This document shows, in pieces, positions 8,626 to 60,132 of a stretch of 64,000 nucleotides of DNA (its first letter is position 1; each line of letters begins with the position of its first letter). Position numbers and translations under genes: made by a program. The notes under the pieces were generated by a model, which was not told where the DNA came from, did not search any database, and saw only the letters and a program-made list of their open reading frames with translations. The DNA lies in IMG/VR virus record IMGVR_UViG_3300031912_000009, positions 1,418 through 65,417 of that record; one strand, given 5' to 3'. The stretch is from a virus (lineage: Duplodnaviria > Caudoviricetes).

Positions 8626-9057
8626 TTGGTTTCGGCAGCGAGTACTCTTCGGCAGATCGCCGAAGAAAGCGGATCAGATCCGCGCGGCGCGGTCTTACGC
8701 GCCGTAGGTGATTTTTCTGGTATCGGAGTGGCGGCGCAACAGGTCTTGGTTGCGTCCTATATCCGTCCTGAGACAACGCGGGGCGGGATTATCCGCGTTG
8801 ATAAAGCGCTGATGGAAGATCGCTTTCAAGGCAAGGTCGGCCTTGTATTGAAGATCGGAACCCTCGCCTTTCAAGACGATAGCGTCAACAAATTCGGTGG
8901 CTTCTCGGTCCAGCCGGGAGAATGGGCGATCTATCGCCCGTCAGATGGTCTGGAACTGTTTCATGTTGCTGACAATGGGCGGGATGCGGCGCCGATCCGG
9001 CTGTTCGCGGATACCAGCATTGTCGGCAAGGTCGATGATCCGTGGAGAATTTACTGA
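8626..9057 (+). CDS. GroES/Cpn10-like co-chaperonin
   Basis: QVLV...ETTRGGIIR...GKVGLVLKIG...VQPGEWAIY matches the Cpn10 pattern; TTG start. Confidence 0.75.
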   Translation: MVSAASTLRQIAEESGSDPRGAVLRAVGDFSGIGVAAQQVLVASYIRPETTRGGIIRVDKALMEDRFQGKVGLVLKIGTLAFQDDSVNKFGGFSVQPGEWAIYRPSDGLELFHVADNGRDAAPIRLFADTSIVGKVDDPWRIY

Positions 9058-10019
9058 TGGCGGACGAAGAAGAAGGCGTAACCGTAGAGGTCGATGAACC
9101 GAAGCCGGAAGGCAATGCTGGTGCTGATCCAGTTGTCGAGTTGCAGAAGCAGTATGAGGAACTGCAAGCTCAACAGAAAACCGATGAAGCTAATCGCAAG
9201 GCCGCTGAAGAACGCGCCCGCGCGGCCGATTCGGCGCGGCAGCAAGCCGAAGCGGCGGCGCACACGGCGCGAGCTGAAGTGGCTGACACGCGCATCGGTG
9301 CGATCGAACAAGGCTTGCAGAATGCGCAGGCTGCATCTGATGCCGCTGAGAACGAATATACGGCTGCGATGGAAGCCGGTGATTGGAAGAAGGCTGCCGG
9401 CGCGCAGCGGCGCTTAGCTGACGCTCGCACTGATCTGAAGCAATACACCTATCAAAAACAGGCTTGGGAAGCACATCTTGCGCAGGCACAGCAGCAACCG
9501 GCCGCACCGCAGCAGCTATCGACTGGTGATGCAGTCGAAGATTACATCAATCGGGTCGGATCGGTGACACCGAATTCGGCGAATTGGCTGCGTAATCACC
9601 GCGATTGGATCACAGATAAGCAGAAGAACGCGAAGTTGACCTCTGCGCATTGGTCGGCGATCGGCGAAGGTTTGCAAGTCGATTCACCGCAGTATTTCGA
9701 TCATGTCGAAAGGACAATCGGGTTGAAAACAGCAGCAAAGACGAATGGCGGCTCAGTGACATCGGCGCGCAAACCGTCCTCCCCGGTTGCGCCGGTCGTC
9801 CCGTCGCCCGGTGGCACTTCGGGCGGCGGGAATGAGGTTCGATTGACCAAAGGTGAAGCGTCTGCGGCTACCGATGGCACTTTGGTGTGGAATTACGACG
9901 ACCCTAGCGGGGCCAAACGCTTCAAAAAGGGCGATCCTATCGGATTGCAAGAGATGGCGCGGCGTAAGCGCGAGCTGCAATCGCAGGGACAGTACGACAA
10001 AGCAAATTACGAGGCCTGA
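9057..10019 (+). CDS. Probable capsid scaffolding protein
   Basis: Acidic coiled-coil N-half, low-complexity linker, C-terminal helix EMARRKREL; ATG overlaps the upstream TGA. Confidence 0.7.
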   Translation: MADEEEGVTVEVDEPKPEGNAGADPVVELQKQYEELQAQQKTDEANRKAAEERARAADSARQQAEAAAHTARAEVADTRIGAIEQGLQNAQAASDAAENEYTAAMEAGDWKKAAGAQRRLADARTDLKQYTYQKQAWEAHLAQAQQQPAAPQQLSTGDAVEDYINRVGSVTPNSANWLRNHRDWITDKQKNAKLTSAHWSAIGEGLQVDSPQYFDHVERTIGLKTAAKTNGGSVTSARKPSSPVAPVVPSPGGTSGGGNEVRLTKGEASAATDGTLVWNYDDPSGAKRFKKGDPIGLQEMARRKRELQSQGQYDKANYEA

Positions 10020-10021
10020 TC

Positions 10022-10648
10022 ATGGCAGAAGAACAACAAGAACCAGTGGTGCGACGTGGGCGCGGACGACCGCGCAAGCAGATTGCGGAGCCAGTACGCG
10101 AAACAGTGCGTCAGGCGGCGCGCGATTCATCCGGCAACGTCGTGGTAATGGGCCGCGACGGTGAGATTCTGACCCGATCGCGCAAAGAAGGCATTGATCC
10201 GTTCGATGTGCCTGTGAAATTCATTCCGATCGGCTGGAGCTATCAGTGGAATGCAATTTCGACCTACGGCAACAGTGAAATCTTTCAGGCGCAGAACGTT
10301 GAATTTCATCAGAACGGTTGGCGGCCGGTTCCGGCCTCGCGACACGATGGGTTTTTCATGCCGAAAGGTCATAAGGGGTCGATCATTATCCGTGGTCAGC
10401 AACTTATGGAACGTCCGGAGGCGTTGACGCAGGAAGCGAAGGACGAACATGAGCGTCGAGCCAATCAGCAGATGCGCGATCGTGACGCGGCGCTGATGGG
10501 CGGGCGCGCCAACGTGCGTCAGGCGGCGCGCGGAGGGTTTGAAATGGGCGGACGCTACCGTGGCACGGGTGGCGATGTACGGATTACCGTCGATCCGGCC
10601 TTAGATGTGCAGCGGCCAAATTATGAACCAGCGGATGACAGCAAATGA
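10022..10648 (+). CDS. Conserved head-module hypothetical protein
   Basis: GWSYQW...GWRPV...IIRGQQLMERP motif of the gene usually next to scaffold and capsid. Confidence 0.7.
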   Translation: MAEEQQEPVVRRGRGRPRKQIAEPVRETVRQAARDSSGNVVVMGRDGEILTRSRKEGIDPFDVPVKFIPIGWSYQWNAISTYGNSEIFQAQNVEFHQNGWRPVPASRHDGFFMPKGHKGSIIIRGQQLMERPEALTQEAKDEHERRANQQMRDRDAALMGGRANVRQAARGGFEMGGRYRGTGGDVRITVDPALDVQRPNYEPADDSK

Positions 10649-10881
10649 CCAAAGCGCCGCACCATAAGGCCGAACATGAACGTGTCGGTAAGACAGAAGG
10701 TGCCAAGAAGCCGCCGCCACAAGACGAAGTGTGCGAGTTAGTGCGTGATTTTGATTTTCCTGGCTATCGCATTGTCATCCGTTGTGAGGGCCATCCGGAT
10801 GTCGTGCTGTTGGAGTTGGGAGATGTGCCAACTGTTCCAGTGATCCATTCACTTGGCAGCAGCAATGCACGGATAACTTAA
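10645..10881 (+). CDS. Hypothetical protein
   Basis: 78-aa ORF with ATGA overlap. Confidence 0.5.
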   Translation: MTKAPHHKAEHERVGKTEGAKKPPPQDEVCELVRDFDFPGYRIVIRCEGHPDVVLLELGDVPTVPVIHSLGSSNARIT

Positions 10882-10893
10882 AAGAGGAATGCC

Positions 10894-11808
10894 ATGCGTT
10901 TGGTGATCTCATTGCCGACCAGAGGTCGGCCAGGAAAGCTTGTCGAAACCATTGGCCGCGATCTGATGTGTCTATCACGACCGGACACCATGCTGATGGT
11001 TCAGGTCGATGAAGATGACACGAACACCGTCCAGGCGCTGCAACAAACACAGTTGCGCAAGGATCAGCGTTTGGTGGTCGACGTGCGGCCGCGCGAGGAC
11101 ACGATCGCAGCCAAGTGGAATCGCGCCCTCATAGTCGAGGCCGATGTCTACACATGCTTGGCTGATGACGATCCGCTGGTAACGCCGGGTTCAGATGAAA
11201 AAATTCTGCAAGCTGCCAGTATATTTCCTGACGGCATTGGTGCTGTCTATGGTCATCTATGCAACGCTTCTTTTAGTTGCTGCATTTCTTTTACTAAGCG
11301 GATGACTGATCTTCTCGGTTATATCCAGCCGGAATATTTCCCCTATTGGTTCTGTGACCATTGGACGGATGATCTGATGAGGATGGTCGGGCGCATTGCA
11401 TTTGCCGATGTGCGGACTTTCCAGACAATTGAATTGCGAATGATAGAACCAACTCAGGAGATGCGCGAGCCGGCATGGTGGGCGACGTGGTTCGACGCGA
11501 ATTATCTGGAAAGACGTGAACATGCGCAACGCATCATCACAGCGATCAACGATCCGGATTGGATGAAGCTGATGCATTACAACTGCGCGCCGATGATCGA
11601 TTACCGATCACGTTGGGTCAACGATAATGTGCGCAGAATGTTTTCCTTCGTTGATGTTAAGGACGAGAGATACCAGCGGGTCAAGCAGAAGGCGCTTGAT
11701 GCGGTGCCGGATATCTTATCGAAGTTGCCGCCGCCTGAAGCGGACAAGTTTCGTGAGATGCTGACGCCTCCTACGACGATCTTGAATTTGCGGAGGGCTT
11801 ACGGCTGA
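10894..11808 (+). CDS. GT-A fold (GT2-like) glycosyltransferase
   Basis: N-terminal ISLPTRGRP, DEDD, KWN..., acidic LADDD motif, YWFCDHW. Confidence 0.72.
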   Translation: MRLVISLPTRGRPGKLVETIGRDLMCLSRPDTMLMVQVDEDDTNTVQALQQTQLRKDQRLVVDVRPREDTIAAKWNRALIVEADVYTCLADDDPLVTPGSDEKILQAASIFPDGIGAVYGHLCNASFSCCISFTKRMTDLLGYIQPEYFPYWFCDHWTDDLMRMVGRIAFADVRTFQTIELRMIEPTQEMREPAWWATWFDANYLERREHAQRIITAINDPDWMKLMHYNCAPMIDYRSRWVNDNVRRMFSFVDVKDERYQRVKQKALDAVPDILSKLPPPEADKFREMLTPPTTILNLRRAYG

Positions 11809-13181
11809 TGCACGGCATGTCGGGGAAGAAGATCGTTCTTTGCCACGGCTGTTTTGATCTTTTGCATATTGGTCATATTCGGCACTTGCAGGAAGCTGCC
11901 GAACTTGGCGATGAATTGGTAGTGTCGGTCACACCTGATCATCATGTCCGCAAGGGGTTAAGTCGGCCGTATTTTACACTTACTGAGCGCATGCATTCGT
12001 TACAGGCACTGCGCTGCGTTGACCGGGTCGTTTGGTACGATTCGCGCGATGCAACTGCCGCTATCGCTGAGATCAAGCCGGATTATTACGTCAAGGGTAT
12101 CGATTATGCCGATGTGGGCGATCCTGAACTGCAACGTGAAATCGTCGCGGTTGAGGCTATTGGCGGCTTATTTCGCACGACCAAGGCGCTTAAGCAGGCT
12201 TCGTCATCGCATCTGATCAATACGACGCGGTTGCCGGATAGCGTTCAAATCTATCTGGCTGATGCGAAGAAACGCGGTTTCCGCGACAAGATTTTGGAAG
12301 CCTTCGATGCGGCTGACAAGCTTAAGATCACCTTTGTTGGCGAGGTGATTATCGATGAATATCGCTATGTGTCAGGTCTAGGGAAGCCGTCGAAAGAGTT
12401 TATTTTGGCGACGGCCGAACAAAGCGCGGAAGAGTTTCAGGGCGGTATTGTAGCCGCTTCCCGCCAAGGCGAATTCAAGGATTCGACTTGGTTGTCGGGT
12501 GGTCACGCTATCAGGAAGACACGGTTTGTGGATCAAGACTTCACCAGAAAGCTGTTTGAGGTTTACCAGCGGCTGGATATAGGACACGACGATCGGTTCC
12601 TGCGTGAACTGTCGGACAAGGTGCGTGTATCGGATGTAATTGTAGTGATCGATTTTGGTCATGGCTTAATGCTTCACGGGGCGATCGATGTGGTGAGCCA
12701 TGCCAAGTTTTTGGCGGCGAATGCGCAGACGAACGCTGGCAATGTTGGTTTTAATCCAATCACGCATTATCGCAAGGCCGACTTGATTGTCGTGGACGAA
12801 CCGGAAGCTCGATTGGCCACCCAGCGACGGACCGGGAATTTGGTCAATCTCGGCGATTGGCTATGCAATCTGGTTGATGCGCCACAGATCATTATTACTG
12901 CCGGTAAGAATGGCTCATGGGCCGGATATCGAGCGAAGTCTGGGGCGCGAGCTTTGTCTGGTGATATGATCCCGGCGTTCTCTAGTCGTGGGCTGGACAC
13001 GATGGGTGCCGGCGATGCGTTTCTTGCGGTTGCGGCTCCGCTTGTTGCTACTGGCCTGGAGGTGGAGGCTGCGGCGTTTGCGGGGAATGTTTCCGGTGCG
13101 ATCAAGACGACGATAGTCGGTCACCGTCGCAATGTGCGACGCAATGAATTGATCCAGACTGTCGAAGCGTTGCTGGCATGA
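11808..13181 (+). CDS. Bifunctional sugar-phosphate nucleotidyltransferase / PfkB kinase (HldE/RfaE-like, inverted domain order)
   Basis: N-terminal HGCFDLLHIGH and YVKGIDY; C-terminal PfkB signature DTMGAGDAF and ANAQTNAGN. Confidence 0.9.
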   Translation: MHGMSGKKIVLCHGCFDLLHIGHIRHLQEAAELGDELVVSVTPDHHVRKGLSRPYFTLTERMHSLQALRCVDRVVWYDSRDATAAIAEIKPDYYVKGIDYADVGDPELQREIVAVEAIGGLFRTTKALKQASSSHLINTTRLPDSVQIYLADAKKRGFRDKILEAFDAADKLKITFVGEVIIDEYRYVSGLGKPSKEFILATAEQSAEEFQGGIVAASRQGEFKDSTWLSGGHAIRKTRFVDQDFTRKLFEVYQRLDIGHDDRFLRELSDKVRVSDVIVVIDFGHGLMLHGAIDVVSHAKFLAANAQTNAGNVGFNPITHYRKADLIVVDEPEARLATQRRTGNLVNLGDWLCNLVDAPQIIITAGKNGSWAGYRAKSGARALSGDMIPAFSSRGLDTMGAGDAFLAVAAPLVATGLEVEAAAFAGNVSGAIKTTIVGHRRNVRRNELIQTVEALLA

Positions 13182-13696
13182 TGTATCTGGTCGAATGGCA
13201 CAAGGCACTGGGTCGTGTATGCAATAATATCTATCCAGACTTTGATGCTGTGGTCGAACGACTAAAGCACATGCGTAAGCAAGGGGAAGGCCAATTGATG
13301 TTTATTGGCAATGGCGGTTCGGCCGCTATTGCTTCTCATATGGCCACCGACTTTATGAATAAGGGCCGGTTCAATACGCGGTGTTTTAATGATCTGGCGG
13401 CGCTGACTTGTCTGTCGAATGACTATGGTTATGAGAATGTATTCAGCATGCAGATCGCGCGAGCTAACGGGCTTGGTGATGTTCTGATCGCGATATCGTC
13501 GTCCGGAGAAAGCAAGAATATCTGCCAAGCAGTCGAGATGGCTAAGGCCGGGATCATTACGTTTACGGGTTTCGAGGAAACCAACCGGCTGCGCAGTTTG
13601 GGTCATTATAATTTTTATGTGCCGTCGAAGAATTACGGCATCGTGGAAACTGCGCATCTTGGCTTGTTGCATGCGCTCCTTGAGGCTGTGACATGA
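13178..13696 (+). CDS. gmhA: SIS-domain phosphoheptose isomerase (GmhA-like)
   Basis: GNGGSAAIASH, ALTCLSNDYGYENVFS, AISSSGESKNI, YGIVETAH. Confidence 0.9.
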   Translation: MMYLVEWHKALGRVCNNIYPDFDAVVERLKHMRKQGEGQLMFIGNGGSAAIASHMATDFMNKGRFNTRCFNDLAALTCLSNDYGYENVFSMQIARANGLGDVLIAISSSGESKNICQAVEMAKAGIITFTGFEETNRLRSLGHYNFYVPSKNYGIVETAHLGLLHALLEAVT

Positions 13697-14565
13697 GTTG
13701 GAACGTCGTAGAGAAATTCAGTTTTGATCCAACCGGCGGCAGTGACAATGCCGATGAATTGGCAACGCTGGCAGAAGACTTGCGCGAGTATAAAGCGGCA
13801 AATCGACCGCTGCCGCGGGTGGTCTTCCCTGAAGGGGTTTATAACTTTTCGACATGGCCGAACTTAGCGATCAATGGATTGGAATGTGTGGGCGAAGGCA
13901 ATGTGCTTCTGCGCCATACCGGCTCCGGTCCGGCGATTACGTTTGATGGTGTGTCGACCGGCCCCGGTGGTGGTGGCCAATTCAATATGCTGATCGACAA
14001 TTTCTATATCATGCCGAATGGCAATACGACCGACACGTTTATTCTGAATTCAATCCATCATAGTCTGGTTCGGGTGCATGCGCTTGGTGTTGGTGTGCCA
14101 GGATCTAAGGCAATCAGCATGTATTGGTGCGTGCTGACCGAGTTGAACAACTGTTCGGTGACGCCACACGACGACAAGGTTTTCGGTCCTGGCGGCAGCT
14201 ACGATTGTATCGGTTTGTGGCTCGACAAGGTCACGCAGCCGTCGCATTGGCAGACGACGGCCTGCCGGTTCGTTAATCCGATACTGGAGAATCTGCGGAT
14301 CGGGGCGTGGCTGGAGGATGCTGGCGGTTGCCAATTCACTGGTGGTGCGATCGAGTATTGCACGGAACGGGGGATCGTGATCCGAACCGGCGGCAACAAC
14401 CAGACGCGCAATCTATGGCTAGAAGGTAATAACGAGCGCGATATTTGGTTCAAATACGACACGCACGACAATCGTTTTGAGGTGACCAACGGCAACGCCC
14501 ACGTTCAGAATGACGCAATCCTGGGCGGCAATAACCGGGTGGTTAGCCCATCGGATATCCTATGA
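13693..14565 (+). CDS. Right-handed parallel beta-helix (pectin-lyase-like) protein
   Basis: FDPTGGSDN...VVFPEGVY N-terminal pattern followed by beta-helix-type repeats (FTGGAIE, NLWLEGN). Confidence 0.6.
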   Translation: MSWNVVEKFSFDPTGGSDNADELATLAEDLREYKAANRPLPRVVFPEGVYNFSTWPNLAINGLECVGEGNVLLRHTGSGPAITFDGVSTGPGGGGQFNMLIDNFYIMPNGNTTDTFILNSIHHSLVRVHALGVGVPGSKAISMYWCVLTELNNCSVTPHDDKVFGPGGSYDCIGLWLDKVTQPSHWQTTACRFVNPILENLRIGAWLEDAGGCQFTGGAIEYCTERGIVIRTGGNNQTRNLWLEGNNERDIWFKYDTHDNRFEVTNGNAHVQNDAILGGNNRVVSPSDIL

Positions 14566-14759
14566 AGGCCGCGGAAAACCTCAAGCTGGGCTGGCTGATC
14601 GGTACTGATGATAGCGGCAAGGTCTATCAAATGCGGGATTGGACCGACATGATTGGCGTCTGCGGTATGGATTGTAAGAAGGGCGAAGAGGTTAAGGTGC
14701 TGAGTGATTACGATTCAGTCATGGAAGCTTTGATGCGTGATGCAGCGGACCGGCAATGA
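14562..14759 (+). CDS. Hypothetical protein
   Basis: 65 aa with ATGA overlaps on both sides. Confidence 0.55.
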   Translation: MKAAENLKLGWLIGTDDSGKVYQMRDWTDMIGVCGMDCKKGEEVKVLSDYDSVMEALMRDAADRQ

Positions 14760-15355
14760 GCCAATTTCTAAATGCCAAGGATTTGATGGATTTCGAACGG
14801 GATATCGAACAGCTATTTGCGGCTGGTGCGATCAAATCTCCGGTACATTTGGCCGGTGGCAACGAACACGAACTGATCCGTATCTTTTCCGGCATTAAAA
14901 GCTATGACTGGGTGCTGTGTACTTGGAGGGCGCATTATCATGCATTACTGCGAGGTGTACCGCCCACACAGGTCAAGAAGGCGATTCTTGACGGCCATAG
15001 CATCGCTTTGTGCTTCCCTGCCTATAAATTTCTTTCGTCAGCGCTTGTCGGTGGCATCTGTCCCATTGCCACTGGAATTGCTTGGGCCATCAAACGTCGT
15101 CACGGTCGGGAAGTGGTACACTGTTTCGTGGGTGACATGGCCGTCCGAACTGGCATCTACCATGAATGTCAGCAGTACTGTATGGGACACGACTTACCTG
15201 TCCACTGGATCATCGAGGATAACGGGAAGTCGGTGACCACGAATACGCGCGAGGTTTGGGGGAAGGGCGTGTTCAAGACGGCACCAGACAAGACGGTCTA
15301 TCAATATGAGCTTAACCGCCCCCACGTTGGCATCGGAACGTTTGTCGTATTTTAG
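14756..15355 (+). CDS. Minimal TPP-dependent dehydrogenase E1 alpha-like subunit
   Basis: PVHL..GNE, WRAHYHAL, SSALVGG, TPP motif VGD...EDN; only 199 aa. Confidence 0.85.
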   Translation: MSQFLNAKDLMDFERDIEQLFAAGAIKSPVHLAGGNEHELIRIFSGIKSYDWVLCTWRAHYHALLRGVPPTQVKKAILDGHSIALCFPAYKFLSSALVGGICPIATGIAWAIKRRHGREVVHCFVGDMAVRTGIYHECQQYCMGHDLPVHWIIEDNGKSVTTNTREVWGKGVFKTAPDKTVYQYELNRPHVGIGTFVVF

Positions 15356-15884
15356 TGCGTTGTGCGAGGCGATGAAGCTTTGCGCGCGCCGTGATGCGAT
15401 CTTTATCGGTCAGGGTGTAGGGCTGCATGGCGGTACGACCATGAGCCAAACGCTGATCCATGCGATCCCGTCACAGCGCTGGGAGTTTCCGGTCGCTGAA
15501 GATATGCAGATGGGTTTCTGCATTGGTATGGCACTGGAAGGCCTGTTGCCGGTCTGTATCTTCCCGCGGTGGAATTTCTTCTTATTGGCATGGAACCAAG
15601 CGATCAATCATCTCGATCGGCTGCCACTGTATTCTTACGAGGGATACAATCCGAAGGTGATTATTCGCACGGCTATTCCGTCCACGATACCTTTTAATCC
15701 TGGGCCGCAGCATGACGATGATTTCACTGAGGCCTTTAGTCTGATGACGCGCAGGATCAAGGTGGTGCGGCTAGGGAATGTAGAACAGATTATTCCGGCC
15801 TATAAGGCGGCCTTGGATGAGAACGGATCGACGTTACTTGTTGAGTATACTGATTGCTATAAAAACGAACGGGCGAAGGGATGA
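15306..15884 (+). CDS. Minimal TPP-dependent dehydrogenase E1 beta-like subunit (pyrimidine-binding domain only)
   Basis: IFIGQGV, EFPVAEDMQMGFCIGMALEG, NQAINHLD, GPQH; start may be TTG 15342. Confidence 0.85.
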   Translation: MSLTAPTLASERLSYFSALCEAMKLCARRDAIFIGQGVGLHGGTTMSQTLIHAIPSQRWEFPVAEDMQMGFCIGMALEGLLPVCIFPRWNFFLLAWNQAINHLDRLPLYSYEGYNPKVIIRTAIPSTIPFNPGPQHDDDFTEAFSLMTRRIKVVRLGNVEQIIPAYKAALDENGSTLLVEYTDCYKNERAKG

Positions 15885-16075
15885 GGCAGTGGTTGTTTGC
15901 GATAATGGGTGCGATTGCCTTGGGAGTTGGGCTTGCTAGATCGTATCAACGTGGAACTATCATTTTATCGCTAGCAATTCTGTTTGCGCTTTATACGGCT
16001 ATTGGTCTTATAACTCTGGACGCAAAGCGTTACCTCTGGTGGTACAGGGAAAAGCCAGGGCCGAAGCATGAATAA
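15881..16075 (+). CDS. Small membrane protein (two hydrophobic segments)
   Basis: WLFAIMGAIALGVGLA and IILSLAILFALYTAIGLITL. Confidence 0.6.
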   Translation: MRQWLFAIMGAIALGVGLARSYQRGTIILSLAILFALYTAIGLITLDAKRYLWWYREKPGPKHE

Positions 16076-16262
16076 GGACTTCTATCATGTCACCATCCGG
16101 TTCGGTGCTGGTATTCCGAACTCAACGCAAGGTGAGGTGATGTTGGATTTGGAAAAAGCGCTGCGGGCGCGCGGTTTGCCGGCTGAAGTCTTCAAGGATA
16201 GCATGGGCGATGACAGCAAGTTGCGTCGTGCGATGACGCCAGAACAGCGGGCGAAGCTATGA
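16068..16262 (+). CDS. Hypothetical protein
   Basis: 64 aa, coupled to the radical SAM start. Confidence 0.6.
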   Translation: MNKDFYHVTIRFGAGIPNSTQGEVMLDLEKALRARGLPAEVFKDSMGDDSKLRRAMTPEQRAKL

Positions 16263-17374
16263 GCGACATCCATGAATACCTTTTGGACGGCACGAAAGTT
16301 GGTTGGTGGCGCGATCGTGTTGAAGCGTGGCAGCGAGGAGAGAAAATTGCGCCCGTATCGATGGATGTCGCTTGGACACGGCGGTGTCAGGCAGCGTGTA
16401 CGTTTTGTTTCTCGCAAATGCAAGCCAGTGAAGGTGGCGAGATTACCAAAGAGATCGCCTTGGACTACTTGGACGATGCCGCAGAAATTGGCGTCAAGGG
16501 GATATCGCTTATCTCGGACGGCGAGAGCACTTTGGTTCCCTATTACGCTGAAAGTATTGAACACGCAGCCAAGCTTGGCATTAAGATCGGAGTTGGCTCG
16601 AACGGTATTGCGCTTACGCGCCCGGTCCTAGAGCGCATCCTTCCCCACATCTCGTATCTCCGCTTCAATTTTAGCGCGGGCGAACGCAAGCGTTACGCTG
16701 AAATTATGGGAGTGAAACAGGTATTCTTCGACCGCGTCGTGCAGAATATCAGGGACGCTATGGAGATCGTAAGGCGCGACAATTTGCAATGCACAGTCAA
16801 TATGCAGATGGTCACCATGCCGTCGATGGGCGACCAGATCCTGCCGCTGGCTAAACTTGGTCGCCAGCTTCGACCACACTATGTGATCTTTAAGCATTGT
16901 TCGGATAACGAAGATGGCTTCCTGGGGATGGATTACAGCAAGTATGACGCACTTTACGAAACATTCAAGCAAGCAGAAGCCATGGGGGATGAGGACTTAC
17001 GCATCATAGTCAAGTGGAATAGGCTGGCCGATGAAGGAAAGCGACAGTACTCGCGATGTCTTGGACCTCCATTTCAGTTACAGATTTCAGGCAATGGATT
17101 GGTGTCTACATGCGGTTTTCACTTTAATTCCAAGTACAGGAAATTTCACATGGGGTGGATCGCTGGTGAAGAGAAACAGCGATTCAAGGCAATCTGGGAA
17201 AGTGATCGATATTGGGAGATCGTTCGATACTTAGCATCGGATGAATTCGATCCGCGGTCTAGATGCGGCACGCAGTGCTTGCAGACGCATACTAATAAGT
17301 GGCTGTTCGACTACACTGAAGGTAAGCGAGACTTTCCGGCCTCGCCGGCTCCGCCGCATCTGGAGTTTCTCTAG
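16259..17374 (+). CDS. Radical SAM enzyme with SPASM/twitch-like C-terminal domain
   Basis: CQAACTFC (CX3CX2C), SDGES (GGE-like), C-terminal RCLG...STCG...RCGTQC. Confidence 0.92.
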   Translation: MSDIHEYLLDGTKVGWWRDRVEAWQRGEKIAPVSMDVAWTRRCQAACTFCFSQMQASEGGEITKEIALDYLDDAAEIGVKGISLISDGESTLVPYYAESIEHAAKLGIKIGVGSNGIALTRPVLERILPHISYLRFNFSAGERKRYAEIMGVKQVFFDRVVQNIRDAMEIVRRDNLQCTVNMQMVTMPSMGDQILPLAKLGRQLRPHYVIFKHCSDNEDGFLGMDYSKYDALYETFKQAEAMGDEDLRIIVKWNRLADEGKRQYSRCLGPPFQLQISGNGLVSTCGFHFNSKYRKFHMGWIAGEEKQRFKAIWESDRYWEIVRYLASDEFDPRSRCGTQCLQTHTNKWLFDYTEGKRDFPASPAPPHLEFL

Positions 17375-18114
17375 TGCTGGTTAAGGACGATGCGCATTAT
17401 TGGTATCCAATCCCTATCATTACTGATTGGCTGACTGACCATGTCATCGCCCCGCGGCAATTGGTGGTCGATGTTGGTTGTGGTCATAACCCGTTCCGGC
17501 GAGCCGATATCGGCCTAGACCGGGTCGATCGCACGGAATTGGAGAAGGCTTGGAAGGCTATGGATATCGAGCCACCACCGGAAAGCTTCCGGTTGGTGAG
17601 GCATGATTTCGCTCGTACAGCGCTGCCATTTGACGACAAGGAAGTAGATTTCATTTATTGCCGGCACACCTTAGAGGATATGCATGACCCGTTTTTATTG
17701 ATGGCTGAGATGCAGCGGGTCGCCAAGGCGGGCTATATCGAGACACCGTCGCCGGTCTGCGAGATTGCGCGCGGGGTGGATGGTGGCCCTAATGCGTACT
17801 GGCGTGGTTACCACCATCATCGTTTTATTGTCTGGGAGAATGAGGGAAGCCTGAACTTCATTACCAAATTTCCGATGATCGAACATATCCAGTTTGATGA
17901 AGACAGGATTGAAAGTGCGCTTCGCGGCAGTCCGTTGTTGTGGAACACCTATTATCTATGGAAAGATGAGATCCGCTGGAAGCATTGGGAAATGCCGTTG
18001 GACTTCGAATTCTGGACTGATTATCCAAAATTGCTGGTTCGATCGGCGACCGAAACCCTTAAGTCAGCGCAAGCTTTTAGCCGCATGGTCGACAAGCAAA
18101 GGCAAGCAGCATGA
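17374..18114 (+). CDS. Class I SAM-dependent methyltransferase
   Basis: VVDVGCGHNP motif I; LPFDDKEVDFIYCRHTLED. Confidence 0.85.
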   Translation: MLVKDDAHYWYPIPIITDWLTDHVIAPRQLVVDVGCGHNPFRRADIGLDRVDRTELEKAWKAMDIEPPPESFRLVRHDFARTALPFDDKEVDFIYCRHTLEDMHDPFLLMAEMQRVAKAGYIETPSPVCEIARGVDGGPNAYWRGYHHHRFIVWENEGSLNFITKFPMIEHIQFDEDRIESALRGSPLLWNTYYLWKDEIRWKHWEMPLDFEFWTDYPKLLVRSATETLKSAQAFSRMVDKQRQAA

Positions 18115-18929
18115 AAAGCGTCTTTATCTTTGTGCCGGCATTCGGCCAGCAAATCAGCGCTTCAACGTTTATGACGACGCATAATCTGGTTCAGGTGCTT
18201 GGATCGCGAGGCATTGGTGGTTCGGTATCGACTTTGAGCTTTCCGGATATTGCCGAGTTGCGATCGATGGCGGCCACGATCTGGTTCGATACCATGCCGA
18301 ACTTCGATTACTTGCTGTTTATCGACGCGGATATGGCGTTCCCGTCCGAGATGGTCTTGGACATGATGCTGTTGGATGAGCCGATCGTGGGGGCGATCTA
18401 TCCGCAGCGGAAGATCCCGCCGTCCTGGGCCGGGTCCGGCAATGGGGATTATTCGACGCAACGCCGCGGCAATTTCATGTTGGTCGAAGGGGTTGGCATG
18501 GGCTGCACGCTGATCCGGCGCGATGTGATGGTTAAGTTCGTCCAGGCTATGCCGGAATTGATTGATACGCGGCTTAGGCTGCATCCTGCCGTGCAGATGC
18601 TGCAAGCTGCCGGCTGTAACCGGCTAATCCGCGCTTTTGAGAAGCTTGAGATACCGGATCGCGGCATAGTCAGTGAGGATCTGTCGTTTTGCATTCGCTG
18701 GGGGAGGATGGGCGGACAGGTCTGGGCGGCAATTAACTATCGTATATCCCACGTTGGGCCATACGATTATGCCGGCTGTTATCTGGAATGGGCGAACGAA
18801 CAGCAGAAATTGCTGGCGCAACAGCAGCAAATGATGGCTCAGTCGCCGCCGATTGTGCCGTCCTCATCGCCATCGATTGTCGTGCCGCCCGGTGCAAACG
18901 GTCTGACTGTGCTTCAGGCCGTCGCTTGA
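18111..18929 (+). CDS. GT-A fold glycosyltransferase
   Basis: YLLFIDADM (DxD), GAIYPQR, GVGMGCTLIRR, SEDLSFC.RW..MGG..W, SHVG. Confidence 0.8.
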   Translation: MKSVFIFVPAFGQQISASTFMTTHNLVQVLGSRGIGGSVSTLSFPDIAELRSMAATIWFDTMPNFDYLLFIDADMAFPSEMVLDMMLLDEPIVGAIYPQRKIPPSWAGSGNGDYSTQRRGNFMLVEGVGMGCTLIRRDVMVKFVQAMPELIDTRLRLHPAVQMLQAAGCNRLIRAFEKLEIPDRGIVSEDLSFCIRWGRMGGQVWAAINYRISHVGPYDYAGCYLEWANEQQKLLAQQQQMMAQSPPIVPSSSPSIVVPPGANGLTVLQAVA

Positions 18930-18954
18930 CATTTTAGTGAAATTCTCATTGTAT
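18926..18954 (+). promoter_or_regulatory. Putative sigma70-type promoter for the capsid operon
   Basis: Perfect TTGACA (18926-18931, overlapping the GT stop), 17-nt spacer, weak -10 TTGTAT. Confidence 0.4.
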
Positions 18955-18967
18955 TGCTGTCGAAACC

Positions 18968-18985
18968 CGGTTCAGATCTGAACCG
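18968..18985. repeat. Perfect 18-bp palindrome CGGTTCAGATCTGAACCG
   Basis: Equals its own reverse complement; lies in the leader of the head genes. Confidence 0.9.
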
Positions 18986-19051
18986 TTCCTTTCACATTCG
19001 CCAAGGCAGTGCTTGTCGGGCGGGGTGCATAACCCGCTCGGAGTCGCTGTT

Positions 19052-19666
19052 ATGGCGAATATTCAATCTCAATTCGGCTTCAAGCACGTCGGGTATGTCA
19101 GCGGCGGCGCCCCTGACATGCAGTTGCAGAATTTTACGATCGCGTCGTCTTATGCAACGCAGATCGGGTTCGGCGATCCGGTCACTTTCACGACCTCTCC
19201 TGCCGGCACGATTATCCAAGCCACTAATTCGCTGGCGACTACTCAACCGATCGTCGGCATCTTCCAGGGTTGTTATTACATTCCAACGGCTGGCGTTCCG
19301 TTGCCGACATGGTCACCGTTCTGGCCTGGATCGGGAGTTGCGCAGAACGCAACGGCTTATGTTATCTCGGCGCCTAATGCGCTGTTCCTCGCTGCATCGC
19401 TTCTAACAGCGATCGGAACAAACAATATCGGCTACAACGTAAATTTTACTTCCGGTGCGCCGGTCACGACTGGCGGCGGATATTCAATCGCCACGCTCGA
19501 TCAATCAACACTGACGACAGGTCTTGGCACTACGTCGAGCTTCCTGCCGTTCAAAGTCTATTCGATGTTCCAGGGAATCGGGAACGGTTCGGACCCGACT
19601 ACGAACTATAACTGGGTTGTCGTGTCGTTCAATTTCCAACTGAATCGCACGATCACGCACGGTTAA
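19052..19666 (+). CDS. Head accessory/decoration protein preceding the major capsid gene
   Basis: MANIQSQFGF...IASSYATQIGFGDPV pattern; GGAG RBS before ATG 19052. Confidence 0.7.
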   Translation: MANIQSQFGFKHVGYVSGGAPDMQLQNFTIASSYATQIGFGDPVTFTTSPAGTIIQATNSLATTQPIVGIFQGCYYIPTAGVPLPTWSPFWPGSGVAQNATAYVISAPNALFLAASLLTAIGTNNIGYNVNFTSGAPVTTGGGYSIATLDQSTLTTGLGTTSSFLPFKVYSMFQGIGNGSDPTTNYNWVVVSFNFQLNRTITHG

Positions 19667-20196
19667 CGGAGTAAACCGCAGTGCTTTCGTCGCTTGCCAT
19701 TTATGATCCGCGAAACGGTGCTTTGAGTGACACCGAATTGGGCTGCAATAAGTCGTTGGCTTACACCACTTTGATGCCAACGCCTGATGCTTTCGATGCG
19801 AGTTTCGGTAATGACGCGCGGAAATGGGTGCTGTCCGTTTGTAGCGGCATGAAGGTAATTTTCGACGCGGGTCAACCATTCCAAATTGGTGACCACGTTA
19901 TTGGTCTTGTCGAAGTCGATATGGTTGACTTCCGGCAGGCTCGCCGGATTAGGAATGAATGCCAGCGCAACCAAACGATGAACCGCCGCGCACTTGGCCT
20001 TACCGTTGGCACGAAGAAAAACAGACATATAACCGCGAGTGCCTTCGTAAACAGAAAGCATGCGGGGTTTGACTGGCGAAATGGAGCCAGCTTTGTTGCG
20101 GCGCATTCTGGCGATGCCGCGCACACGTCCGAAATTGCTGACTTCGTAAGACGTGGAAAACTCTGCGATCGGCAGAGGTCGCCATTCTTCCTTCAT
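19663..20196 (-). CDS. Free-standing NUMOD4-HNH homing endonuclease with C-terminal HTH
   Basis: WRPL...YEVSNFGRVR (NUMOD4); VHRLVALAFIPN...VNHIDFDKTNN...NLEW (HNH); SQRLIAAQFGVTQSTVSRI (HTH). Confidence 0.92.
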   Translation of the reverse strand: MKEEWRPLPIAEFSTSYEVSNFGRVRGIARMRRNKAGSISPVKPRMLSVYEGTRGYMSVFLRANGKAKCAAVHRLVALAFIPNPASLPEVNHIDFDKTNNVVTNLEWLTRVENYLHAATNGQHPFPRVITETRIESIRRWHQSGVSQRLIAAQFGVTQSTVSRIINGKRRKHCGLLR

Positions 20197-20243
20197 GCCG
20201 CATATCTTAGCGGCACATCGCGTTATGCGCAAGGAGGCAATCC

Positions 20244-21158
20244 GTGCCGATAGCCCTCGCAAACATTAGGTCGGAGCTTCTCCCCGGTTTGTTTGATGTC
20301 AGAGGTTCGTATGACATGATCCCGCGTCAGTGGGACAAAGTCTTCACGACGCGCAAATCGAACCTCGCAGTTGAACGCTCAACGCAGATGGCGTTCACTG
20401 CATTGCCGTTCCTAAAAGATGAAGGTGCGGCAACTCAATTTGATAACAACGCTGGTGAACGTTTCACTTGGGCGTTTATACATATTGAGGTGAGTTTAGG
20501 TTACTCGATCACAAGAAAAGCTATAGATGATAATATTTATAAGGCGCAATTCAATCCAACGAACTTGAAGTTACAAGAAGCGTTTGCGCAATTTAAAGAA
20601 ATACAAGCAGCAAATATTCTCAATCTCGGCACGACGTATCAAGCTTCGATCATCGGTGACGGTCAAGCGTTGTTCTCGACTGCGCATCCGTTTGATGGCG
20701 GCACTTGGGCGAACACTTCGACAGTGCCGAAAAGCCTTAATGAATCGACACTTCTTGCTGATATGACGAACGTTCGTGTTCAGTTTGTGAATGAACGCGG
20801 ACTTCGTATTTTGTCGCGCGCTCGTCGTTTGATTGTTCCTCCGAATCTTGAACCTATCGCAATACGACTTACCAAGACAGAATTAAGACCGGGCGTGGCA
20901 GATAACGACGTTAATGCAATCTTAACTTTATCAGGAGGACTTCCAGAAGGATTTATTGTTCTGGACTTTCTCACGTCAAACTTTGCTTGGTTCCTCACAA
21001 CAAATATTGAGGGACTGATTCACATGCTGAGAATTCCCTACGAGTCTGATATGTGGGTGGACAACGTAACTGATAACTTACTCGTGAAAGCATATGAGAG
21101 GTATAGTTTCGGTTACAACGATCCGCGCGCAGCGTGGGGTGAATTTGCTACGAGCTAA
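20244..21158 (+). CDS. Major capsid protein (HK97 fold)
   Basis: ELLPGL...KDEGAA..FD...LGYSITRKAIDDN...GDGQALFSTAHP...RERYSFG-type pattern; AAGGAGG RBS, GTG start. Confidence 0.9.
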   Translation: MPIALANIRSELLPGLFDVRGSYDMIPRQWDKVFTTRKSNLAVERSTQMAFTALPFLKDEGAATQFDNNAGERFTWAFIHIEVSLGYSITRKAIDDNIYKAQFNPTNLKLQEAFAQFKEIQAANILNLGTTYQASIIGDGQALFSTAHPFDGGTWANTSTVPKSLNESTLLADMTNVRVQFVNERGLRILSRARRLIVPPNLEPIAIRLTKTELRPGVADNDVNAILTLSGGLPEGFIVLDFLTSNFAWFLTTNIEGLIHMLRIPYESDMWVDNVTDNLLVKAYERYSFGYNDPRAAWGEFATS

Positions 21159-24601: not shown

Positions 24602-27600
24602 ATGGCCGACCCCAACGGCAGAAACTCACCTCCCGATCTAGGCGCTTATTCGAACGCGGCACCGGCTGCCGGCGTGGCAATGGGCGCGGTTGATGCCAGC
24701 GGCAATCTGCAACCGTTATCGATTTCGCCGACTGGCGGGCTGATCGTTGCCGGGTCGTTTGCGGCTGGGTTTTCGACTACTGCGCTAGCCGTCACGACCC
24801 AAACGAACGGCACGGGCGCCTTGGTATGGCTGGCTCCGACCCAGACTTTGAATGTCGCGATTGGGGCCTCGACGGCCATAGCGACCACGACCCAAGCGGC
24901 TGTGACGGGCGCTATCGTATGGCTCGCCCCTACCCAGACGGTTACCGCGCAAGTCAGCGGATCGGTTCAGGTCAGCGGCACCGTCAGTGTTTCGGGTGCT
25001 TCGTTCTCTTCGACCGCGGTTGCCACCACTACCCAGTCCGGACAATCAGGCGTGACGGGCGCGGTGGTGTGGCTCGGGCCGGCGCAAACGATCACTGCGC
25101 AAGTGTCGGGTCAGGTTCAGGTGTCCGGCACGGTATCGGTTGCGTCCGGCACCGTTTCTGTCTCGGGGCTGACGCCGACCACGACTGCATCCGGCATGAG
25201 TGGTGTGACAGGCTTGCCGGTGTGGGTTGGCAATCCCGGTGGCAATACGACCGTCGTATCCGGAACGGTCACCGTATCCAATCCGATTCAAGTTAGCGGC
25301 CTAACGCCCACGACCACTGCCAGCGGCATGTCGGGGGTCACGGGGCTTCCGGTATGGGTCGGTAATCCTGGCGGCAATACCACGGTGGTGTCCGGCACCG
25401 TCAGCCTTGTGACGGTTAGCTCGGTCGGAACGATCGTCACCCTGCTTGGCACCGTACTGGTGTCTGAAGCGGCGGCGATCTCGATTTCATCGATTGTGGC
25501 TACGACGACGGCCAGCGGCTTAAGCGGTGTCACAGGCTTGCCGGTCTGGGTAGCCAATCCTGGCGGCAACACAACCGTGGTTTCCTTAACCGGCAGTGCG
25601 CTGGTCAGCGGGACCGTTTCGCTTGTGACGGTGTCATCGGTCGGCACGGTGGTTACGCTTCTCGGCACCATCAATGTGTCCGGTCCTGTTCAGATCAGCG
25701 GTATCACGCCGACTACTACAGGTTCGGGTTTGAGTGGTGTTGCTGGTCTTCCGGTGTGGATCGCACCCGGCGGCGGCGCGACGACGGTTGTTTCGTTGAC
25801 GGGAAGTGCGTTGGTCAGTGGCACGGTGTCGATCTCGACTGCTGTGGTTGCCACCACAACGCAAACGGCTGCGACGGGTGAATTGGTATGGCTTGCTGCC
25901 ACGCAAACGCTTGCGGTCATCAGTACTGTCGGCACGGTACTCGGCACTGTTGCGGTTAACGTTGTCGCTGGTGGCGCTGCACCCGGCACAACATTTACTG
26001 GACAGACATCAAATACGGCGCAGCTTGTCTGGTTAGCGCAAACCCAGACGTTGAGTTTGATCAGCACTATCGTGACCGTTCTGGGAACACTTCAGGTTTC
26101 CGGTACGATCCAGATTTCGTCTGTTCAGGTTACGGCCAGCACGCCAACCGCAACTGCGACCGGCATGGTGGTTTGGATGGCCAATCCACCCGGTGCGGCA
26201 AACGCACCCGGCACGACTTTTACGGGTCAGACGTCGAACACGGCCCAACTAGTATGGTTGGCGCAAACGCAGACGTTGTCACTGATCTCCACAATCGTCA
26301 CGGTTCTCAGCACCGTTAATGTCAGCGGTACGGTTCAGTTGTCCGCGGTGACGCCAACAACAACTGCATCTGGATTGTCTGGCGTTACTGGCGTTCCGGT
26401 GTGGGTGGCTAATCCAACGCAATTAAGTGTCAGCGCGCTCGGCACGACGTTCACGGGTCAAACTAGCAACACAGCGCAATTGGTGTGGTTAGCGCAAACG
26501 CAAACTCTGTCGCTGATTTCGACTATCGTCACGATCCAGAACACCGTGATCGTTTCAGGTCCGGTGCAGATCAGCGGTATAACTCCAACCACGACCGCGT
26601 CTGGATTGTCTGGTGTTACTGGACTGCCGGTGTGGATGGTCGGCGGGGCTGGCGGCGGTACGACGCTGATCAGTGTTGTCTCGACCCTAATCACGATCTT
26701 AAGCACCGTTCAGGTCAGCGGCACGGTGATCCTGTCGCAAGCGGCATTCACTACAGCATCGAGTGGATTAACCGCGACGGCAACCGGACTAATCGTTGTC
26801 GCGACCGGGACTGTTTCGGCCGTCGTCACCGGCACGGTATCGGTTTCTGGAACGGTGCCGGTTACAGGAACGATCCAGAACGTTGCGTCGATCTCGACTG
26901 TGTTAGGAACGGTCGTAATCTCTGGTCCCGTTCAAATCAGCGGGATCACACCAACTACCACTGCATCTGGCTTAAGCGGCGTTACCGGACTTCCTGTCTG
27001 GATGGTGGGTGGCGGCGGCGGCGGCACGACATTGATCAGTGTCGTTTCCACACTGATTACGATCCTAAGTACCGTTCAAGTCAGTGGCACCGTTAACCTC
27101 TCGCAAGCTGCATTTACAACGGCTAGCTCGGGCTTAACCGCAACGGCTACTGGTTTGATTGTGGTGGCTACCGGCACGGTCAGTGCGGTGGTTACTGGCA
27201 CGGTTTCGGTTTCTAACACTGTTGCAGTTGCTGCGTCTGGCACAGTTTCGCTGGTCACTATCAGTTCGGTCGGAACGGTAGTCACGTTGCTTGGTACTGT
27301 GCTGGTTAGCATCACACCGTCAGCATTGGTTAGCGGTACGCTTTCATTCTCGGGTGCTGCGTTTACGACGGCCTCGAGCGGCCTGACTGCAACAGCGACT
27401 GGATTGATTGTCGTAGCGACCGGCACGGTGACTGCCGTAGTCACTGGCGTTGTTTCTGTTTCGAACATCGCGACTGGCACCGTGTCGGTTAGCAATGTGG
27501 TTTCGGTGACAGGCACCTCGTTGAATGTGGTCGCGAGTGGCACTGTATCTTTAGTCACTGTCAGTTCAGTCGGCACCATTGTTACGTTGCTTGGCGTAGT

Positions 27601-58938: not shown

Positions 58939-60042
58939 CTAGGCGAGATCATTCAGGATCTGTTGCGCCCGGTGTTTCCACAGGTGTTTGTCGGCAATGA
59001 CTTTGCGGGCTTCCACCGAGGCCCGTTGCCGTTCATAGGGGTGCTTGAGCCACCACCCGGCTTCCTCGACAAAGTTGTCGGCGTTGTATTCCCCGTAATG
59101 AACCCCCGGTATGAATGTCTCGGTCATCTGGCCGGCAGCTCCGACATGGGGCGATCCATGGGCCATGACGAAGCCGCCGACTGCCATGGCCTCGAGGACG
59201 CGGCTGTGCATGGCGAAGCCGAAGATGTTGTCGTGGGCGTTGATCCGGCTGCGCTGATACAGATCGAGGAGGGCTTTGCGATCGTTGGTGAACGGTTTGG
59301 CGTATGCGGCAAATTCCGGCCATAGATCCCAATGCAGCCCCCAGAACTCGACGTTTTTGGATACTGACAGGATCAGTCTGGCCAAGGCAAAGCGGTTCTG
59401 AAGGCGCGCGGTTTCATGGATATTCATGGCTGAAACGGCATCGATGCTGGCCCGTGATCTCGGATCGAAATAGCCGTCCAATATGGTCTTGAACCGGGCC
59501 ACCTCGCCGGCTTGATCGAACGATCCACTTAATGGCGTTATTCGGGTCTCGGCGACGATGAGATCCATGAGTTTAGCTGTGATCGGGTTGGTCACCGGGT
59601 CTTTGAAAAACTTTGGCGAGGCAATGAACCCAGCAATGGAGAAATCGAGGTTAGGTTTGACCGGCGGCTGGTTTAAGAGTTCCGGATCGACGCCCATGCA
59701 CAGCGATCCAATCCAATGCTTGAATTGGGGTGCGCCTAAGATCCTGGGATCGCCAAATGTATAGATCCGGTCTTGCGGCAATGCGCGTCCATTGTAATCC
59801 GGATCACGGCCATTACCGTAGTATTCCTGCACCCATGCAATGTGGATGCAGTTCTTGGGGATCTCGTCGCTGCGCGCGTGGCCGACTTCGATGACAGCAT
59901 CGGCATAGGATAAGAGTTCGGGTTTGTCTTTGCGGCCAAAGCCGATGACGATGCAAGGGTGACCAAGGCTGTCGAGGGCGTATGCCAAAGCGGTGTTGGC
60001 GCGTTCGTCAAACAACTTGTGACAGATGAAAGCGATCCGCAT
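58939..60042 (-). CDS. GT-B glycosyltransferase (CgeB/YkvP-like, Glyco_trans_1_2)
   Basis: FWGLHW, LYQRSRINAHD, RVLEAMAVGGFVM, HLWKHRAQQIL. Confidence 0.85.
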   Translation of the reverse strand: MRIAFICHKLFDERANTALAYALDSLGHPCIVIGFGRKDKPELLSYADAVIEVGHARSDEIPKNCIHIAWVQEYYGNGRDPDYNGRALPQDRIYTFGDPRILGAPQFKHWIGSLCMGVDPELLNQPPVKPNLDFSIAGFIASPKFFKDPVTNPITAKLMDLIVAETRITPLSGSFDQAGEVARFKTILDGYFDPRSRASIDAVSAMNIHETARLQNRFALARLILSVSKNVEFWGLHWDLWPEFAAYAKPFTNDRKALLDLYQRSRINAHDNIFGFAMHSRVLEAMAVGGFVMAHGSPHVGAAGQMTETFIPGVHYGEYNADNFVEEAGWWLKHPYERQRASVEARKVIADKHLWKHRAQQILNDLA

Positions 60043-60132
60043 GGCGCGATACTAAAGTTTGTTTGCCGGCCTTTCGAATCGGGTTACGCTGATCATCTCG
60101 CGATGATTTTCACATCCTTCGGAGCGGCGGCC

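Follow-up and report, generated by a model that had tools for sequence, protein, structure and literature searches.

The 64,000-nt stretch of viral DNA analysed here (called the window; its source is an IMG/VR viral record of 65,417 bases, rated 96% complete) carries, at 10894-18929 among its head genes, an island of twelve genes that probably makes an unusual seven-carbon sugar and links it to protein. The explanation that we favour, with modest confidence, is that this head-operon island glycosylates a virion protein, most likely a surface protein, in the cytoplasm and late in infection. A virion protein is favoured by the lack of a flippase, a polymerase and an integrase, by the position of the island in the head operon and by the linkage of its last glycosyltransferase gene, C12, to capsid genes. 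Furthermore, flagellin glycosylation islands contain the cellular counterpart of the sugar module, as would be expected if the glycan were linked to protein.

The island consists of twelve open reading frames (ORFs), C1 to C12, all of them on the plus strand and translationally coupled, whose 11 junctions overlap by 1-50 nt; the gene upstream lies 12 nt from C1. The first-pass annotation of this DNA had described a cassette of twelve genes at 10894-18929, and the ORFs are exactly at these positions. Eight of the twelve ORFs have family matches (CTP_transf_like together with PfkB, SIS/GmhA, E1_dh, Transket_pyr, Radical_SAM together with SPASM, and methyltransferase), although two of these eight assignments are weaker PHROG matches. 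The GC content of the cassette is 51-53%, compared with 56-60% in the upstream head genes. From this gene layout, it is reasonable to infer that the cassette is co-transcribed with the head genes; a role of its product at assembly, as proposed in the first-pass annotation, may be read from the same layout.

The two ends of the cassette had been assigned to two different GT-A glycosyltransferase genes. The phmmer and profile searches of C1 (10894..11808, 304 aa), C12 (18111..18929, 272 aa) and the flanking gene product g217 against PDB sequences gave nothing significant, and therefore a comparison of folds was needed for the two transferases. AlphaFold (AF2) models built on 29-30 homologues reached a predicted local distance difference test score (pLDDT) of 91.6 for C1 and 85.8 for C12, and both models fold as GT-A enzymes according to AF2, Foldseek and VIA-align, in agreement with that assignment. 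The DxD motif of C12 (D72-A-D74) is invariant across 30 sequences, and the protein matches phrog_1574. VIA-align matched it to STIV A197 (Z 15.7) and to the GT-like domain of LH3 (Z 14.9). It also resembles ColGalT1 and, as Foldseek showed, Mnn9 and, more weakly, PBCV-1 A64R, an enzyme that glycosylates the major capsid protein of that virus. C12 shares the GT-A fold with A64R and A197, although the identity is only 12-20%. C1 is a GT2-like enzyme and the probable second or elongating transferase; it matches the glycosyltransferase family phrog_14945, PF00535 was found in one homologue, and acidic residues are conserved at positions 91-92. The top Foldseek matches of C1 were TarP, TarS and RmlT (E about 4e-7, template modelling score (TM) 0.55).

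More than 460 relatives of C12 were found in the protein collection, none of them with a name, and at least 480 in IMG/VR. The Atlas clusters nearest to C12 are 83-100% viral and, judging from these clusters, the family is essentially viral. Regarding the genomic neighbourhood, we counted the linkage to capsid genes in 77 IMG/VR loci among those returned for C12-family genes. A capsid gene lies within 6.6 kb of C12 on the same strand in 60 of the 77 loci, with a median gap of 939 nt, and several of the 17 loci without a capsid match simply end before the flanking sequence on the relevant side. In the clade of the phage studied here, C12 precedes g217 and the capsid gene. A second clade has it 1-1.7 kb downstream of a capsid gene that is 31-44% identical, and in a third group it is found 0.36-1.1 kb downstream of a phrog_1328-type capsid gene. 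That the position of C12 changes and its proximity to the capsid gene is kept is the best computational hint, taken from gene order, of a family acting on the head.

The usual gene order in this family of phages is portal, GroES-like, scaffold-like g325, g208, g217 and capsid, and the capsid gene has at least 595 relatives in IMG/VR. We compared 71 related loci, each of them with g208, g217 and the capsid gene. This comparison with relatives lacking the cassette, one of the checks proposed in the first-pass annotation, gives a slot of mostly 107-830 nt between g208 and g217, the spacer length in nearly all the loci whose capsid protein is at most 81% identical. A C12 homologue is inside the slot in 17 of the 71 loci (about 14 distinct contigs), and in all these 17 the capsid protein is at least 84.5% identical to that of this phage.

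The content of the slot differs among these relatives. The heptose gene set is nearly the same as here in L120, L011, L006/L124 and L125, L011 having an additional FkbM methyltransferase. L012/L123, L122 and L121 have one 613-aa thiamine diphosphate (ThDP) enzyme of the acetolactate synthase (ALS)/YerE type in place of the E1alpha/beta pair. In L084, L085 and L129 the heptose genes are replaced by an acetamido-sugar set, that is, only C1 and C12 remain and they are accompanied by a DegT aminotransferase, a DUF6016 protein and a hexapeptide acetyltransferase. L007, L008 and L128 have both transferases and small unknown ORFs, with no sugar-synthesis genes. The sole occupant of the slot in L014 (7608-9206) is a 532-aa fusion of a C12-like GT-A domain and FkbM, and similar fusions are present in BFVD. 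Thus, C12 is present in every cassette variant and C1 in most of them. Whether the sugar genes are swapped as a variable locus had been raised as a question from the single sequence, and the answer is yes: the cargo is exchanged in a fixed slot and the transferases, above all C12, are constant. Since the sugar-making cargo is exchangeable between related phages, the best reading of the island is that it works as a variable glycan-coat locus. Two other genes were observed in L006, an HNH endonuclease inside the cassette (L006:4225-4752) and, in the same slot at the 3' side of the cassette, a TROVE/Ro60-like protein with a vWA domain (L006:7081-8385, the same as L124:12318-13619).

Regarding the sugar itself, C2 (11808..13181, 457 aa) is a predicted heptose-1-phosphate nucleotidyltransferase in its N-terminal part and a predicted heptose-7-phosphate kinase in its C-terminal part. 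PF01467 was found at residues 12-137 and PfkB at residues 322-438; residues 5-139 align to positions 338-470 of the HldE profile and rfaE_dom_I aligns to residues 234-451, which is the reverse of the domain order of E. coli HldE. The matches to rfaE_dom_II (E 4.7e-31) and rfaE_dom_I (E 3e-13) are both under the equivalog cutoffs. A homologue in Butyrivibrio sp. NC2002 is colinear with C2 and has the same reversed order (32% identity, E 4e-62). By eye, the Arg five residues before a degenerate LKQASSSH in C2 may be the counterpart of the 'STTR5' residue, which has been tied to CDP/UDP-heptose synthesis (PMC11461863). C3 (13178..13696, 172 aa) is a GmhA-like sedoheptulose-7-phosphate isomerase. 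It is 45-67% identical across related cassettes and scores above the cutoff for SIS_2, and its match to TIGR00441 (E 2e-25) reaches 89.5 bits, the equivalog cutoff being 209 bits.

None of the cassette ORFs matched the HAD or SDR families, that is, neither a GmhB phosphatase nor an HldD epimerase was found among them, and the Butyrivibrio HAD and SDR proteins used as tblastn queries found nothing in the window. Viral heptose enzyme sets without the phosphatase have been reported (commentary on Tang et al. 2024, PMC11461863). The island has the GmhA-like isomerase, the PfkB-type kinase and the cytidylyltransferase-like nucleotidyltransferase of such nucleoside diphosphate (NDP)-heptose sets and, as the phosphatase is absent from it, the phage module matches them. 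In contrast to the known NDP-heptose pathway, the C2 domains are fused in the opposite order and score far under the equivalog cutoffs, GmhB and HldD are lacking, and radical S-adenosylmethionine (SAM), ThDP and methyltransferase steps are added.

These additional steps correspond to the second half of the cassette. C6 (14756..15355, 199 aa) is a miniature E1alpha-like ThDP-binding subunit (PF00676, E 2e-10; TIGR03182, E 3.5e-22) with an intact GDM...EDN motif, and C7 (15306..15884, 192 aa) is a miniature E1beta/transketolase pyrimidine-binding subunit (PF02779, E 1e-6). C10 (16259..17374, 371 aa) is a radical SAM enzyme (PF04055, E 4.5e-14) whose CxxxCxxC motif is CQAACTFC at residues 43-50 and whose SPASM domain (PF13186) is at residues 267-340, and C11 (17374..18114, 246 aa) is a class I SAM-dependent methyltransferase (PF08241, E 5e-8). 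C9 (16068..16262, 64 aa) has no family match and no match in the cellular loci described below; in phage cassettes it is always directly 5' of the radical SAM gene, and it is 46-75% identical in L006, L010, L011, L012, L120, L122 and L125. C4 (13693..14565, 290 aa) is an accessory protein with a weak right-handed beta-helix match (PF13229, E 0.009, under the cutoff); tblastn found no counterpart in any related locus, so it is present only in this genome. C5 (14562..14759, 65 aa) has no family match and a copy 46% identical at the matching position in L122. C8 (15881..16075, 64 aa) is hydrophobic, without family match and not conserved in relatives.

According to their domains, C3 would convert sedoheptulose 7-phosphate into heptose 7-phosphate and the kinase part of C2 would convert this into the 1,7-bisphosphate. 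A host phosphatase would then leave the 1-phosphate, the GmhB step being presumably left to the host, and the nucleotidyltransferase part of C2 is predicted to produce the NDP-heptose. C10, with C9 as its small partner, and C6/C7 would add or rearrange carbon, either as a two-carbon branch or as a chain extension. Finally, C11 would methylate the product, and C12 and C1 would transfer the sugars to an acceptor that is soluble and produced late in the infection. The likeliest acceptor would be a virion surface protein, that is, the capsid protein, the adjacent low-charge g217 or a fibre.

Branched-chain sugars offer a precedent for the central step, as YerE (for yersiniose) or E1alpha/beta-like pairs (for some antibiotic sugars) add a two-carbon unit to a sugar nucleotide; these known ThDP cases act on 4-keto-6-deoxyhexoses made by dehydratases. 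The island is similar in that either an ALS/YerE-like enzyme or an E1alpha/beta pair is found at the same cassette position across phages. It differs in that the ThDP enzyme would act on an NDP-heptose and has a SPASM radical SAM enzyme as its partner. In a Pacearchaeota locus (L199:9461-11101), a single 546-aa ORF joins an E1beta-like ThDP subunit, homologous to C7, to a SPASM radical SAM enzyme, and this fusion suggests that the two enzymes act together, as a complex. The interchangeability with the YerE-like enzyme and the archaeal fusion therefore support a joint step of C10 and C6/C7.

Homologues of C10 that are 45-49% identical occur in bacteria and archaea of several phyla, and with this enzyme we retrieved 15 cellular loci. 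In most of them we found, in whole or in part, a module in which a further radical SAM paralogue is accompanied by GmhA, an SDR, a HAD phosphatase, an HldE-like fusion and one of three alternatives (a split transketolase, E1alpha/beta or an ALS-like enzyme); some of the 15 loci have the complete module and others only parts of it. The phage module is a reduced one, with one radical SAM enzyme, miniature ThDP subunits and without SDR and phosphatase. In Butyrivibrio sp. NC2002 (L200:1363-20704) the order is flagellin, three Maf-like genes, two radical SAM genes, split transketolase, HAD, SDR, HldE in the swapped order, GmhA and two glycosyltransferases. The flagellin matches solved flagellins with an E of 1e-96, and the three Maf-like paralogues, of roughly 600 aa, belong to PF01973 and weakly match PDB 5mu5 (E 3e-4). 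The layout in Butyrivibrio VCD2006 is the same, and Maf-like genes are also near the module in a Lachnospiraceae and in a Desulfobacteraceae metagenome-assembled genome. Maf-like genes were found in four of the 15 loci (L200, L207, L202 and L198), and so, judging from the neighbouring genes, the pathway looks as if it were part of a flagellin glycosylation island in at least these four. This flagellin and Maf setting implies that the sugar is used on protein. The NC2002 locus is thus a candidate flagellin glycosylation island with an uncharacterised heptose-derived sugar in a cultured bacterium. We found no description of a pathway combining NDP-heptose, a SPASM radical SAM enzyme and a ThDP enzyme in the full-text literature, and this sugar pathway appears to be uncharacterised.

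The known Maf-type flagellin islands of Campylobacter, Helicobacter, Aeromonas and Magnetospirillum (PDB 5mu5) are similar in that the cellular sugar module adjoins flagellin and Maf-like genes, and the cellular destination is a protein-linked glycan. However, the phage lacks Maf, the second radical SAM enzyme, the SDR and the HAD phosphatase, it has the miniature E1alpha/beta pair instead of the split transketolase, and its GT-A transferases are phage-specific. With the Butyrivibrio Maf proteins as queries, neither the window nor any of eight related phage genomes gave a match.

Several observations weigh against a virion protein as the acceptor. The capsid proteins of cassette-bearing phages have on average no more Ser/Thr residues than those of cassette-less relatives (38.9 and 41.1 per protein, respectively), and one fragment, L023, has a capsid allele 87% identical and lacks the cassette. 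Low-charge Ser/Thr-rich fibres occur in cassette-less relatives too. The nearest solved folds of C1 are wall-teichoic-acid glycosyltransferases, which act on cell-envelope polymers. Furthermore, the linkage between C12 and capsid genes rests on about three or four independent arrangements, and as the lineages are all related podophages these represent few independent linkage events. Finally, g217 could not be supported as a cement or decoration protein, because the Atlas lead scored only 0.81-0.83 and Pfam scans of 19 homologues found no cement family.

Two leads to the acceptor were tried and discarded. Regarding Ser/Thr sites of the capsid protein that are specific to the clade, eight columns do differ, but there is no rise in total Ser/Thr, and phylogeny confounds the comparison. 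A Ser/Thr-rich fibre as the cassette-specific acceptor was rejected, since such proteins are present in cassette-less genomes as well. A bolder version of the favoured reading is that C12 founds an undescribed family of capsid-directed protein glycosyltransferases, that the head, or a protein attached to it, wears a rare carbon-extended, methylated heptose of the bacterial flagellin type, and that the radical SAM and ThDP enzymes form a new route to carbon-carbon bonds, leading from an NDP-heptose to a branched or higher-carbon sugar; we hold this as a whole to be possible and rather doubtful.

The same enzymes might instead remodel the host surface, that is, the lipopolysaccharide (LPS) core or O-antigen, the capsule or the glycan of host flagellin or pilin, and so block superinfection or the re-adsorption of progeny to the lysing cell. 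We regard this as unlikely, although the closest solved folds to C1 are those of TarP, TarS and RmlT, enzymes of wall teichoic acid glycosylation of which TarP is prophage-encoded, heptose is a classic LPS core sugar, and host flagellin could be the acceptor given that the cellular module serves flagellin islands. However, a crude hydropathy scan found no polytopic membrane protein in the cassette or in the window, C8 being the only cassette ORF with a hydrophobic segment, and the record has no flippase, polymerase or Gtr-type protein, so the absence of Wzx/Wzy/Gtr-type membrane proteins noticed at first was borne out. There is no match to the tyrosine integrase family PF00589 in the 96%-complete record, and with no polytopic membrane protein either, classical lysogenic O-antigen conversion is unlikely, as had been argued before. 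A Maf homologue is also absent from the phage, the island is in the head operon and not in a moron or early region, and its invariant C12 comes from a viral family that tracks capsid genes. Somewhat less probable still is that the sugar is mainly for the 1855-aa fibre encoded at 24602-30169 (+), transferred by a tetratricopeptide-repeat (TPR) GT41 enzyme, and that the GT-A enzymes of the head operon only elongate it. The fibre is nearly charge-free and Ser/Thr-rich (31% Ser/Thr, about 1% charged), and the TPR-GT41 gene, of the OGT/SPINDLY family of protein glycosyltransferases, is directly downstream at 30187-32001 (+). Nevertheless, GT41 is absent from all 10 related genomes searched, among them G001, G003 and G004 with the heptose cassette and two with other cassette types; with five cassette-bearing relatives lacking it, GT41 was rejected as an obligatory partner of the cassette. 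In addition, similar fibres are found without the cassette, and C12 tracks capsid genes and not fibres. The 1855-aa protein may be an extra or alternative acceptor in this phage.

It is very improbable that the island serves to hypermodify the phage DNA with sugar against restriction, as in T4, RB69 and DLP3. In RB69 and DLP3, the hallmark of DNA glycosylation is the pairing of soluble glycosyltransferases with an NDP-sugar pathway encoded by the phage (PMC13326640), and an MT-A70 DNA methyltransferase is encoded at 59959-61104. However, a thymidylate-synthase-like hydroxymethylase or hydroxylase is absent from the 96%-complete record (PF00303 gave no match in it, the control being positive in 10 of 14 genomes), and no dCTPase or dNMP kinase was found. 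The DNA glycosyltransferases of PMC13326640 match GT-B-type enzymes, whereas those of the island are GT-A, and the island is in the head operon, not among nucleotide-metabolism genes. The least probable explanation, which we would hardly expect to be true, is a free metabolite as the product, such as an NDP-heptose signal or a small glycoside. NDP-heptoses are bioactive and viral enzymes can make them, and heptose-derived natural products such as septacidin exist (PMC11461863), but no part of the island is more conserved than the two glycosyltransferases, which are kept without sugar-synthesis genes in L007, L008 and L128.

Glycosylation of the virion, the reading preferred here, has precedents. 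Phage-encoded enzymes glycosylate capsid and tail tube proteins of mycobacteriophages (Freeman et al. 2023, Cell Host Microbe, as cited in PMC11600133). According to the part of PMC11600133 that deals with them, the systems of the Che8 and Corndog types resemble the island in having phage glycosyltransferases and an O-methyltransferase with no membrane machinery, in phages that can be lytic; that part mentions these enzymes and no phage nucleotide-sugar pathway, which is a difference. The island would make its own rare sugar, it has a fixed slot beside the capsid gene, it belongs to a podophage of a different host range and its role in glycosylation is a predicted one. Virion glycosylation, in mycobacteriophages and chloroviruses, and NDP-heptose enzymes in viruses were thus already known. 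What is new is that a widespread group of environmental podophages has a self-contained pathway for a rare sugar in a fixed slot adjacent to the capsid gene, that the cargo of this slot is exchangeable, that a viral GT-A family is linked to capsid genes and that the module has a tie to flagellin islands. To our knowledge, a few actinobacteriophages and giant algal viruses are the only cases in which virion glycosylation by phage-encoded enzymes has been demonstrated.

A large and environmentally widespread group of podophages appears to keep a swappable glycan locus beside the capsid gene, comparable to the variable O-antigen loci of bacteria. Should the virion be the acceptor, the phage surfaces would have strain-specific sugar coats, which could influence adsorption and stability as well as the evasion of defences and recognition by the immune system. 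The flagellin and Maf link in the cultured genus Butyrivibrio offers a tractable system for the chemistry of the sugar.

Regarding the flanks of the slot, the interval had been described as running from scaffold to capsid, which is approximately right: the cassette is inside the head-gene block, but its direct neighbours are g208 and a 78-aa ORF on one side and g217 on the other, not the scaffold-like g325. The latter (9042..10019, +) is Ala/Gln/Glu-rich, with a coiled-coil-like N-terminal half, its position is conserved in relatives and it has no family match. The conserved head-module gene g208 (10022..10648, +) is the left border of the slot, and the 78-aa ORF (g78; 10645-10881, +) follows it before C1. 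The right border is g217 (19052..19666, +), a conserved head-module protein of 204 aa with 3% charged and 21% Ser/Thr residues. It is conserved beside the capsid gene and is a candidate surface protein and acceptor.

The TTGACA hexamer, presented before as a new promoter at the end of the cassette, does exist at 18927-18932, over the stop codon of C12, but its status as a promoter is weak. The best -10 at a 17-nt spacer is TTGTAT (3/6), the promoter scanner made no call there, and 12 promoter-like sites were found in the region compared with a shuffled expectation of 12.1. Only the closest relative, L120, keeps TTGACA at the same place, in a better version (TTGACA-17-TTTAAT). In the same plus-strand stretch of intergenic signals (18927..18985), the hexamer is followed by a terminator-like hairpin with a 7-bp stem (18968-18985) and then a T-rich run. 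Many relatives have comparable hairpins and a conserved leader before g217, with or without the cassette, so the island appears to have been inserted at the 3' end of the portal-to-g208 unit, 5' of the terminator-like element of that unit. The leader reads GGCAGnGCnTGyCGGG...CTCGGAG and was observed after the hairpin, within 18960-19051 and the equivalent regions of the relatives. Hairpin and leader could act before the g217-capsid pair as a terminator, as an attenuator or as a site of processing.

Between g217 and the capsid gene, on the minus strand, there is an HNH/NUMOD4 homing endonuclease with a helix-turn-helix (HTH) domain (19663-20262). The major capsid protein (20244..21158, +; phrog_371) is 30-59% identical to annotated capsids of HTVC023P-type pelagiphages, of Roseobacter, Planktothrix and Caulobacter phages and of an uncultured spring virus. 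Its identity is 85-95% among phages that share only 35-60% in the portal, the scaffold-like protein and g217, and the capsid region is the GC minimum of the head-gene region (0.476) and among the two lowest in the window. Possibly, the capsid allele has spread by homing. A GroES-like co-chaperonin gene (phrog_3188, E 2e-4) is placed at 8626-9057 (+), after the portal gene and before the scaffold-like gene; it is conserved among the relatives, and its HTVC023P counterpart is annotated as GroES.

The window also encodes the large terminase, the portal, the GroES-like protein, an SU10-type adaptor and tail proteins, as well as ERF/YqaJ recombination genes and the MT-A70 methyltransferase. A megablast search of GenBank phages with 9000-21000 gave no match, that is, no close cultured relative. 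Adjoining the MT-A70 gene, at 58939-60042 (-), we observed a fourth glycosyltransferase, a GT-B enzyme (Glyco_trans_1_2) whose product resembles the C-terminal domain of a 691-aa transferase of the Butyrivibrio flagellin island (25% identity, E 8e-10).

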